From assembly GCF_988242995.1 (NCBI RefSeq), contig NZ_OZ547043.1: a DNA stretch of 64,000 nt. One strand, 5' to 3'. Each line of letters begins with the position of its first letter. Position 1 is the first letter of the stretch. The translations under genes were made by a program, and so were the position numbers. Of this stretch, positions 22,814 through 26,024 are shown one piece after another. The notes below the pieces were generated by a model, which made no database searches, was not told the origin of the DNA, and worked only from the letters and a program-made list of their open reading frames with translations.

Positions 22814-23887
22814 TTAGAACTGGTAAACGATACCCACAGCTACGGTGTCGTCAGAACCTACGCCCAGTTTGTTGTCAGAATCGATCTGGTTGATGATGTA
22901 GTCAACATAGGTGGACATGTTTTTGTTGAAGTAGTAGGTTGCGCCCACTTCAAAGTAGTTCACCAGATCAACATCACCGATACCTTCTACGTCTTTCGCT
23001 TTAGATTTGGTGTAAGCGATGGACGGACGCAGACCGAAATCGAACTGGTATTGCGCAACTAACAGAACGTCTTGCGTTTTGTTGGCGAAGCCGCCTTCAA
23101 TTGGCGTAGCGTTACGGGTTTCACCGTAGTTCGCTGCCAGGTAGATGTTGTTCGCGTCATACTTCAGACCAGTTGCCCACTGTTCAGCTTTTTTACCCTG
23201 ACCGCGGAATTCGGCTTCCTGGGCGTCGGTACGGTCTGCTGCACCGTAAGCACCTACGATACCAAAGCCTTCGAATTCGTAGCTGATAGAGCCACCGACG
23301 CCGTCGCCGTTGGAACGCTCAGGAATACCAGCACGTTCGTTTTTGCCCAGGTACTGAACGGCAAAGTTCAGGCCGTCAACCAGACCGAAGAAGTTGGAGT
23401 TACGATAGGTAGCAACGCCGCCTACACGACCAACGAAGAAGTCATCGCTGTATGCCGTGTCACCGCCAAACTCAGGCAGCATATCGGTGTAACCCAGTGC
23501 GTCGTAAACCACACCGTAGTTACGACCGTAGTCGATAGAACCCGCATCAGCGAATTTCAGACCTGCGAATGCCAGACGAGTTTTGTTACCTTTCTGGGCA
23601 TCAGCGCCTTCAGAGTTGTTACCCTGGAAGTTATATTCCCACTGACCGTAGCCGGTCAGATCGGAATTGATTTGTGTTTCCCCTTTAAAACCAAGACGGG
23701 CATAAGTTTTGTCGCCGTTTCCGCCGTAACTGTTTACACCATTGTCTTTAGAAAAATAATGCAGACCGACAGCTTTACCGTACAGATCTACTTTGTTGCC
23801 ATCTTTGTTATAGATTTCTGCAGCGTTTGCAGTACCTGCTACTAACAGAGCAGGGACGATCACTGCCAGAATATTGCGCTTCATCAT
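22814..23887 (-). CDS. ompF: Outer membrane porin OmpF (loop-variant allele)
   Basis: 357 aa; signal peptide [23 protein letters not shown]-terminal ...VAVGIVYQF; barrel core matches OmpF, loop segments differ from K-12 as recalled. Confidence 0.95.
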
Positions 23888-24034
23888 TATTTATTACCCT
23901 CATGGTTTTTTTTATGACACCTGCCACTGCCGTCAATAAGTTCTGTCAATAAAAATTTACGGAACTATTGATGAGAGTTTGGTGTCTTTATGTGTCTGCA
24001 GGCATCTTTCCATTCAAACTAACGTTTCGCTACC

Positions 24035-24100
24035 GTGAAAGTGCTACAAAGATAAAGATTTGGTTTCAAAAAGAAAAAATATGTAACCAAAAGTAAAATT
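24035..24100 (-). promoter_or_regulatory. ompF promoter-proximal OmpR binding sites F1-F3
   Basis: Minus strand reads TTTACTTTTGGTTACATATTT / TTTTCTTTTTGAAACCAAATC / TTTATCTTTGTAGCACTTTCAC, the classical OmpR boxes about -100 to -40 from the ompF start. Confidence 0.8.
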
Positions 24101-24448
24101 TAAGGAACTTTGTGAACACCGTCATATTTCCATAGAAGCGTGATGATATTTACAGCAATATTTATCTATTTATATGATTTCATTATATTTAAATTAACTA
24201 AACGGAAATTTTGTTTCTGATGGAAACTTTATCGACCTGGCACTAAATCCTCGTTCAGACATCCAGAACGCCAAAAAATAGTATGAAAATTGTGCTATCA
24301 GCTAAGAAAAAACTAATCCGCAATAAGAATGCGGATTATTTTTTGTGCGCAAATGTTGCAGTGTAATATTCCGTAACAGGATGATCGTTATGGTGGGGTT
24401 GCAAATAGATTGCTTGACTTAACAAACAGATAACTTGACAGAAAGGAT

Positions 24449-24476
24449 AAAAAAAGAGCCAGCGGGCGCTGGCTCT
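24449..24476 (-). terminator. Rho-independent terminator of asnS
   Basis: agagccagc-gggc-gctggctct hairpin followed on minus strand by T7. Confidence 0.8.
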
Positions 24477-24489
24477 TGAAGACGCTAAA

Positions 24490-25890
24490 TTAGAAGCTGG
24501 CGTTACGTGGAGTACGTGGGAACGGAATCACATCACGCACGTTTTGCACGCCTGTTACGTAAGCAATCAGGCGTTCAAAACCAAGACCGAAACCGGAATG
24601 CGGAACAGTACCGTAGCGACGCAGATCGCGATACCACCAGTAATCTTCTTTGTTCAGGCCCATTTCCAGCATACGCTCGTCCAGCACGTCCAGACGCTCT
24701 TCACGCTGGGAGCCACCAATGATCTCACCGATGCCCGGAGCCAGAACGTCCATAGCCGCAACGGTTTTACCGTCTTCGTTAAGGCGCATATAGAACGCTT
24801 TAATATCTTTCGGATAGTTTTTAACCACTACCGGTGCTTTAAAGTGTTCTTCCGCCAGATAACGCTCATGCTCAGAAGAGAGATCGACGCCCCAGTAAAC
24901 CGGGTTTTCAAACTTCCTGCCGCAGTTTTCGAGAATGGTCACTGCGTCGGTGTAATCCACCTGCGCGAAATCGGCCTCAATAAAGCGTTCCAGACGTGAA
25001 ACGGCATCTTTATCTACGCGTTCAGCGAAGAATTTCATGTCGTCAGCGCGTTCTTCGAGAACCGCTTTGAAGACATATTTCAGCATGGCTTCAGCCAGAC
25101 CCGCAATATCGTTCAGGTTAGCAAACGCCACTTCCGGCTCCAGCATCCAGAATTCCGCCAGGTGACGGCTGGTGTTGGAGTTTTCAGCACGGAAAGTCGG
25201 GCCGAAGGTATAAATTTTGGACAATGCGCAAGCGTAGGTTTCGCCGTTCAACTGGCCAGATACGGTCAGGAAAGACTCTTTACCAAAGAAGTCTTTGTCG
25301 AAATCCACTTTGCCCTGATCGTTACGCGGCAGGTTTTCCAGATCCAGCGTAGAAACGCGGAACATTTCGCCAGCCCCTTCGGTATCAGACGCAGTAATCA
25401 GTGGCGTTGAAACCCAGAAGAATCCCTGCTCGTTAAAGAAGCGATGCAGCGCCTGCGCCAGCGTATGGCGAACGCGCGCGACGGCACCAATCAGGTTTGT
25501 GCGCGGACGCAGGTGAGCGACTTCACGCAGATACTCAATGCTGTGGCGTTTTGCCGCCATCGGGTAAGTGTCTGGATCTTCAACCCAACCAGCAACTTCA
25601 ACCTTGCTGGCCTGAATTTCAAATTGTTGCCCCTGGCCCGGCGATGCCACGACTTTACCCGTCACAATGACCGAGCAACCGGTGGTCAGACGCAGGACGT
25701 CTTCATTGTAATTGGGCAGAGAATTATTGATGACAGCCTGTACAGGATCAAAGCAGGAACCGTCATAAACGGCGAGGAAGGAGATGCCAGCTTTTGAATC
25801 TCGGCGGGTACGTACCCATCCGCGCACGGTGACTTCGCTGTCAACGGCTACGCGGCCCTGGAGTACGTCGGCTACAGGCACAACGCTCAT
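24490..25890 (-). CDS. asnS: Asparaginyl-tRNA synthetase AsnS
   Basis: 466 aa from MSVVPVADV (track ORF has 15-codon upstream extension); class II aaRS motifs. Confidence 0.96.
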
Positions 25891-26024
25891 AATATTCTCT
25901 CTGTTAATAGTCGGAAAAAATAAACACTTGTCCACCCGTAAATGGGGGGATACCTATGTTACCTGGCATCTGCAATCAGACAAGCAGAATTCGCAAATGC
26001 AGCGAAAGATTTCGGAATTAAAGG

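Follow-up and report, generated by a model that had tools for sequence, protein, structure and literature searches.

A terminator-like hairpin in the ompF–asnS spacer of Escherichia coli and the sequence that surrounds it

Setting and anatomy of the hairpin

The window, which is the whole stretch of 64,000 nucleotides that was analyzed, originates from Escherichia coli, and its spacer between ompF and asnS is 100% identical to that of strain O169:H41 Res13-Lact-PER13-34. Relative to K-12 MG1655, the spacer shows 97.3% identity, with 16 differences and no indels; therefore, adding 963,095 to a window coordinate gives the NC_000913.3 coordinate. The RefSeq annotation of the spacer contained nothing in MG1655, in the strain with the identical spacer, or in any listed E. 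coli genome. Inspection of the plus strand confirmed that a real palindrome lies between asnS and ompF (Table 1). Given the ompF start at 23997, the hairpin occupies −317 to −341, and on the minus strand the asnS terminator precedes it by 116 bp. Strains 2014C-3307, KY179, CFSAN004176, and O111:H11 carried a second E. coli allele of the asnS terminator region (24454–24490), which differed by a loop change, an A-run that was shorter by one A, and an altered sequence between the stem and the stop codon.

The hairpin is adjacent to F4, the distal OmpR site (CTGTTACGGAATATTACACTG...), which we take to cover approximately 24357–24381 on the minus strand from its distance in the literature and its footprint limits. 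The footprint of F4 reportedly extends from −380 to −350. F4 is directly distal to the hairpin, the arms and loop of which (24314–24338) fall outside of the footprint; the hairpin itself displays no clear tandem 10-bp OmpR half-sites of the kind expected of an F4 operator. The F4 site is situated about 260 bp upstream of F1–F3 (PMC3050692; PMC1489923). The sigma-E SELEX peak in the spacer, at approximately 24014, corresponds to the ompF promoter rather than to the hairpin. Three A/T tracts (A6 at 24273–24278, A6 at 24307–24312, and T6 at 24339–24344) are 32–34 bp apart, a spacing that would bring them roughly into phase at about three helical turns.

Table 1. Positions of features in and around the ompF–asnS spacer, in window coordinates.
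Feature	Position	Strand	Basis or remark
ompF	22814–23887	minus	
Plus-strand start	23996	plus	Cappable-seq 986,314, relative read score 22.9
ompF start	23997	minus	SMRT-Cappable-seq, K-12 987,092
Plus-strand start, weak	24027	plus	Cappable-seq, relative read score ~2
Plus-strand start, weak	24055	plus	Cappable-seq, relative read score ~2
Plus-strand start, weak, just before hairpin	24307	plus	Cappable-seq, relative read score 2.7
A-run, A6	24307–24312	plus-strand reading	Sequence; preceded by g24306
A6 read on the minus strand, GTTTTTTCTT	24307–24312	minus	Terminator scan; U-tract of minus-strand hairpin
Unpaired c between A6 and stem	24313	plus-strand reading	Sequence
Proximal (5') arm, TAATCCGCA	24314–24322	plus-strand reading	Sequence
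7-nt loop, ATAAGAA	24323–24329	plus-strand reading	Sequence
Distal (3') arm, TGCGGATTA	24330–24338	plus-strand reading	Sequence
T6, followed by GTG	24339–24344	plus	Sequence; U-tract of plus-strand hairpin
T6 + GT, TTTTTTGT	24339–24346		Also −37 to −30 of plus-strand start 24376
Plus-strand start, strongest of spacer	24376	plus	Cappable-seq U00096.2 986,694, relative read score 74.5
RNA without annotation, ~102 nt	24376–24477	plus	Cappable-seq start, TRS end 987,572
asnS intrinsic terminator stem	24454–24477	minus	Real asnS 3' end; scan, folding, mapped ends
asnS	24490–25935	minus	

An earlier sequence-only reading of this DNA described a hairpin with a T-run on both strands, and this description was borne out by the sequence, by a terminator scan, and by folding. 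The arms, loop, and T-run were placed correctly, but the c at 24313 that had been counted into the stem is unpaired and the A-run begins at 24307. The stem is perfect over 9 bp with four G-C pairs, is closed at its base by four A-U pairs, carries a loop of seven bases, and was terminator-like on both strands in a consensus scan. It is directly followed by T6 on the plus strand and by G and T6 on the minus strand, whereas K-12 carries a G at 24339, which changes its plus-strand tail to G and T5. The hairpin thus has the G+C-containing stem-loop and immediate U-tract of an intrinsic terminator. A 51-nt RNA segment containing it folded at −16.3 kcal/mol (z −4.39) on the plus strand and −16.5 kcal/mol (z −4.87) on the minus strand, and none of 200 shuffles folded as well. 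The hairpin alone reached −10.7 kcal/mol (plus) and −11.6 kcal/mol (minus), and the asnS terminator was stronger (−17.8 kcal/mol). Its terminator discriminant, computed with a classical formula and modern energy parameters, was marginal or negative: +6 for the plus strand of this strain, −35 for the plus strand of K-12, and −20 for the minus strand, compared to +31 for the asnS terminator.

The window contained approximately 14 distinct perfect hairpins of at least 9 bp, as against an average of about two in its dinucleotide shuffles, and most of these appear to lie at gene ends, as judged from their positions rather than gene by gene. No hairpin with A-rich and T-rich flanks was encountered in 30 dinucleotide shuffles of the window. 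A perfect 9-bp stem flanked by A6 and T6 was far rarer in shuffles, and is very unlikely to be a chance product of random sequence. A dispersed palindromic repeat of the REP or BIME type was rejected because the hairpin is single-copy: its 30-nt core occurred at a median of one place per genome in the 1,950 E. coli genomes with that allele, and the surrounding 191-nt region also yielded one match per genome. A search of positions 23800–24600 against Rfam 15 at a permissive threshold returned chance-level matches only, the best overlapping ones being STnc240 (22.1 bits, threshold 55) and MicC (20.6 bits, threshold 90), both with E >1.

RNA ends and transcription around the hairpin

The sequence-only reading suggested that the hairpin insulates the ompF upstream region from asnS read-through or marks the 3' end of a short transcript without annotation. 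Neither the available part of the Adams 2021 Term-seq lists nor the TRS lists called a 3' end at K-12 98739x–98744x on either strand, and SMRT-Cappable-seq showed neither a transcript end at the hairpin nor an asnS–ompF read-through unit. RNA 3' ends at the U-tract in vivo, as expected of an intrinsic terminator, were therefore called for neither strand in these three data sets, which are thresholded peak lists that would miss low-abundance ends and low-flux termination. The neighboring ompF and asnS terminators were both called in TRS and SMRT-Cappable-seq. In the available part of the Term-seq lists, the ends listed were 985,841 (minus), 986,970 (minus), and 987,644 (plus, antisense in asnS), and the ompF terminator was called among them.

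The mapped 3' ends of asnS in TRS and SMRT-Cappable-seq together fell at K-12 987,541–987,544 on the minus strand, with 987,541–987,543 in TRS, and according to TRS the asnS terminator removes 98.5–100% of transcripts (drop 0.985–1.0). The next minus-strand end in TRS was the ompF terminator, and SMRT-Cappable-seq reported ompF and asnS as separate units, with ompF–aspC read-through present. On the plus strand, the only TRS end in the spacer was 987,572 (window 24477), at the back of the asnS terminator. The hairpin does not appear to close a transcription unit: on the minus strand it stands behind the asnS terminator, and on the plus strand the upstream starts are modest (23996) or weak, with 23996 as a possible main source of the transcripts that are able to reach it. 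Since the asnS terminator is 98.5–100% efficient and the upstream plus-strand starts are weak, very little transcription reaches the hairpin. On these data, insulation against asnS read-through was not borne out: no ends were called in the thresholded lists, the asnS terminator leaves at most 1.5% of transcripts, and the pairing is not kept among related genomes (see below). The starts at 23996 (plus) and 23997 (minus) are back to back, so that transcription diverges at the ompF core promoter and also enters the control region upstream of it.

It is possible, although doubtful, that the hairpin works as a two-way insulator terminator at low flux. On the plus strand, it would stop the divergent transcripts from 23996, 24027, and 24055, for which it is the first terminator-like site, and would protect F4, the 24376 promoter, and antisense asnS from them. 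On the minus strand, it would serve as a fail-safe behind asnS and spare the IHF and F1–F3 part of the ompF region; it could not shield F4, because the minus-strand hairpin is downstream of that site. Its terminator-like anatomy on both strands, which is much rarer in shuffles, argues for such a function, whereas the lack of called 3' ends on either strand (in thresholded lists, with Term-seq available in part) and an asnS read-through of at most 1.5% argue against it. In size, loop length, and total energy, the hairpin falls among real E. coli terminators, and a stem-loop with a T-run on both strands is shared with intrinsic terminators, including two-way ones. However, the hairpin differs from these in that it appears to end no transcription unit, has an A-U-rich base, obtains a marginal discriminant, and shows no conservation of its pairing. 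Two-way terminators are reportedly located mostly between convergent genes; the hairpin possesses both tracts, but the genes beside it, ompF and asnS, run in the same direction on the minus strand. In its position between the asnS terminator and the ompF promoter, the hairpin resembles a tandem or fail-safe terminator. In contrast to that class, however, its primary terminator is already 98.5–100% efficient, it is precisely the minus-strand hairpin that the commonest E. coli allele weakens, and the second hairpin is missing from most related genera.

A transcript named C0240 is reportedly present in the ompF–asnS spacer. C0240 has been described as a plus-strand transcript between ompF and asnS (Stead 2011). 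The start at 24376 and the plus-strand end at 24477 together define an RNA of approximately 102 nt, and this RNA is probably C0240. It shares the spacer with the hairpin and the strand with one of the two readings of the hairpin, but it begins 38 nt downstream of the hairpin, which lies upstream of the C0240 promoter and is neither part of this RNA nor its terminator. The earlier proposal of a short transcript thus held insofar as a plus-strand RNA without annotation exists in the spacer, but this RNA starts past the hairpin and no end was called at the latter. A literature search for a RIL-seq-style name, ompF.asnS.IGR, retrieved nothing. Past the end at 24477, the Term-seq end at 987,644 (window 24549) is a further 3' end on the plus strand.

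We regard it as highly improbable that the hairpin is the terminator, or a part, of a short plus-strand gene without annotation. The candidates for such a gene were an RNA from the promoter-like TTTACA-18-TATGAT upstream of the hairpin (24149–24178), an RNA from the weak Cappable-seq start at 24307 (relative read score 2.7), and an ORF from the ATG at 24283. The promoter-like site, the weak start, and the report of C0240 as a plus-strand spacer transcript are consistent with a gene of this kind, whereas the supported plus-strand RNA occupies 24376–24477, wholly downstream of the hairpin, and the best Rfam score is 22 bits against a threshold of 55. An RNA of about 160 nt that would run from the 24149–24178 site to the hairpin was rejected, as Cappable-seq had no start near 24185. 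A small ORF through the hairpin (24283–24366, plus strand) was likewise rejected, as its length varies and its start is lost in E. albertii. Translation from the ATG at 24283 would span 27 codons in this strain, 18 in K-12, where T24339G creates a TAG, and 14 in KY179, and E. albertii has ATA in place of the ATG; the conserved frame and start of a small protein are therefore lacking in ORF 24283–24366.

Variation within E. coli and across genera

Allele counts were obtained from 5,426 complete E. coli genomes. The perfect-stem allele, with the energies given above for this strain (−10.7 kcal/mol plus, −11.6 kcal/mol minus), was carried by 1,950 genomes (36%). The A24335G allele (2,038 genomes, 38%) forms a G·U wobble on the plus strand (−10.1 kcal/mol) and an A·C mismatch on the minus strand (−7.9 kcal/mol), and the G24333A allele (1,038 genomes, 19%) forms a C·A mismatch on the plus strand (−4.5 kcal/mol) and a G·U wobble on the minus strand (−9.4 kcal/mol). 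The exact perfect stem was thus absent from 64% of the genomes, with these two commonest alternatives totaling 57%; each of them introduces one uncompensated non-Watson-Crick pair on one strand, and no compensatory changes were seen among the E. coli alleles. All substitutions within Escherichia were in the distal arm (24331, 24332, 24333, 24335, and 24338). The proximal arm and loop were constant in ten E. coli strains, except for a 1-nt insertion in the proximal arm of KY179. E. albertii has the same proximal arm as E. coli and three changes, which give G·U pairs in the plus-strand hairpin but mismatches in the minus-strand one. The idea that wobble pairs conserve the stem on one strand in particular was considered and rejected: E. 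albertii favors the plus strand, but Citrobacter and the B2-type E. coli allele show the opposite, and the two strands scored alike overall.

These alleles bear on the low-flux terminator in both directions. All common E. coli alleles keep a stable hairpin on at least one strand, which is compatible with a working terminator. On the other hand, the minus-strand hairpin drops to −7.9 kcal/mol in the 38% allele and the plus-strand hairpin to −4.5 kcal/mol in the 19% allele; the function of neither strand is protected in the species. A stronger version of the idea, which we consider unlikely, is a selected two-way insulator within the upstream control region of ompF itself that stops both divergent and residual asnS transcription. 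Such an insulator would prevent polymerases from displacing OmpR, IHF, and the F4–F1 loop from the DNA and from occluding the 24376 promoter, and differences among the three common E. coli alleles would adjust how leaky it is on each strand. As an observation on the spacer as a whole, its promoter-proximal 240 bp (23888–24130) are almost invariant in E. coli and its distal half is unusually polymorphic, with 2,733 of 5,424 genomes only 90–95% identical to the window over 24230–24420.

The comparison across genera included the spacers of 25 genome species and of 49 distinct metagenome contigs that were anchored on the ompF promoter. In spacers of approximately 300 bp (Erwinia, Pantoea, Serratia, Yersinia, Pectobacterium, and others), the distal region is missing entirely, whereas spacers of approximately 600 bp (Escherichia, Citrobacter, Enterobacter, Kluyvera, and relatives) contain the orthologous segment. 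The TGTTAC of F4 is kept in the long-spacer genera. In short-spacer genera, the asnS terminator follows a conserved TTAAATATAAGAAATTCATATA motif about 150 bp from the ompF start. Long-spacer genera have an extra 300 bp or so upstream of this motif, in which a new asnS terminator is found together with F4 and the hairpin region; at the old position of the asnS terminator they carry unrelated sequence. In Superficieibacter electus, an additional insertion within the first ~190 nt behind the asnS stop contains two more terminator-like hairpins, AAAGCCAGCTTCGGCTGGCTTT and GAAGCCAGCTTTAGCTGGCTTT, as well as a G+C-rich stretch that looks REP-like by eye.

Within the orthologous segment, the perfect stem was found in E. 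coli only, and Citrobacter, Phytobacter, Kluyvera, Leclercia, and Superficieibacter had a hairpin of −4.7 kcal/mol or weaker, or none. None of the 46 non-Escherichia orthologues formed all nine pairs; the commonest count was seven, and about 68% of cells paired. In-register pairing amounted to 70.9% (plus) and 70.3% (minus), compared to about 67% with shuffled partners, and the difference between 70.9% and 67.6% (shuffled) is inside the stated false-positive range of the counting tool for related sequences. The fold z of 51 non-E. coli orthologues averaged about −0.55 on either strand, with only about 15% below −2, and RNAalifold returned no consensus structure (0 pairs, 0 kcal/mol). Maintained pairing, a property of intrinsic terminators, is therefore missing, and the idea of a stem conserved through compensatory changes failed: no sequence outside of Escherichia was fully paired, RNAalifold detected no structure, and the E. 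coli transitions were uncompensated. No called 3' ends and an unconserved, uncovaried stem are the two observations that had been named beforehand as contradicting both the insulator and the short-transcript-end readings; as far as the data go, both were made.

A good hairpin was kept at the same place in a few other lineages, namely L107 (−14.3 kcal/mol, z −4.9), L096, L123, and L126, which lends some weight to the low-flux terminator, whereas a hairpin is absent from most genera whose spacers are built in the same way. Changes on both sides of a pair affected two outer stem positions: columns 24–46 of alignment A2 are A-U in 31 sequences and U-A in five, and columns 26–44 contain several pair types. 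The covariation score was slightly above that of shuffles (6/500). The kept hairpins and the two-sided changes would fit either an ancestral hairpin that is decaying in most lineages or weak selection.

The best-conserved columns among the 46 non-Escherichia sequences were GTGCTA (24292–24297), AG (24305–24306), C.CAATAA (24319–24326), and TTATTTTTTGT (24336–24346). C.CAATAA spans the top of the stem and the first four loop bases, so that the start of the loop is more conserved than the stem, and conservation among genera reaches at least 90% at C24319, C24321, and A24322. The loop start and the flanks reach at least 90%, whereas the arm positions 24, 26, 41, and 44 of alignment A2 reach only 30–50%. 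Among the flanks, the T-run with its GT was the best conserved between genera, including those in which no hairpin is formed, and the A6 columns (16–21 of A2) were only moderately conserved outside Escherichia. Greater conservation of the loop and flanks than of the arms is the reverse of what is seen in a selected RNA hairpin, and points to a constraint on the DNA sequence.

The same asymmetry bears on the 25-bp palindrome TAATCCGCA-N7-TGCGGATTA as a candidate operator of a dimeric DNA-binding protein with ompF or the 24376 promoter as its target, which we judge to be quite improbable. The palindrome is centered at approximately −50 from the start at 24376 and −329 from the ompF start, its dyad is perfect in 36% of E. 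coli genomes, it is partly conserved as sequence, and the region is dense with regulator sites, all of which agree with an operator. However, its half-sites are asymmetric, with one arm and the loop kept and the other arm variable in E. coli as well as among genera. Conservation of both arms would be expected of a symmetric operator, and this pattern therefore counts against it, as does the lack of an assigned known factor or of a match in a by-eye comparison with known consensuses.

Candidate roles of the conserved motifs

We favor, with moderate confidence, an Escherichia-specific palindrome that overlies DNA-level regulatory sequence and that is a latent terminator look-alike not maintained by selection. 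The possibility raised in the sequence-only reading that the structure is incidental in AT-rich DNA is the one that gains from the 3'-end lists and from the unconserved pairing. The motifs C.CAATAA, T-run with GT, and GTGCTA most likely serve the DNA rather than complementarity, judging from the pattern of conservation. They may take part in protein binding or bending beside F4, or in the −35 region of the 24376 plus-strand promoter; the T-run is at −37 to −32 of that start, and F4 abuts its other side. Alternatively, they may provide a bend for the F4–F1 loop. With respect to F4 and the looped ompF upstream region, the hairpin region is found only in long-spacer, F4-containing genera, and what is kept in it is the sequence and not the structure. 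We know of no protein that binds 24292–24346, and a by-eye comparison of the motifs with the consensuses for CRP, IHF, Lrp, the MarA/SoxS/Rob box, PurR, and ArgR gave no convincing match. A polymerase that crosses the hairpin on either strand would probably be terminated in part. The hairpin would be at most a rarely used fail-safe terminator and a near-neutral structure rather than a dedicated RNA element.

By type, the element is a common intrinsic-terminator-like hairpin of little importance. If the favored explanation is true, a textbook-looking two-way terminator would stand unused and unselected in AT-rich regulatory DNA. In that case, terminator calls made upstream of promoters from sequence only would have to be backed by 3'-end data and by comparison between genomes. 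Should the insulator reading be true instead, it would be a small addition to the classic model of ompF osmoregulation, in which the F4–F1 loop is protected from transcription. The more useful by-products of the analysis are the conserved unpaired motifs without an assigned factor between F4 and the IHF region, and the coincidence of F4 with the start of an uncharacterized RNA of about 100 nt. This start at 24376 is inside F4, at −379 from the ompF start, and OmpR-P bound to F4 would overlap the −10 region and the start of the 24376 promoter. The 102-nt RNA itself contains a 13-codon ORF (MIVMVGLQIDCLT) after an AGGA.
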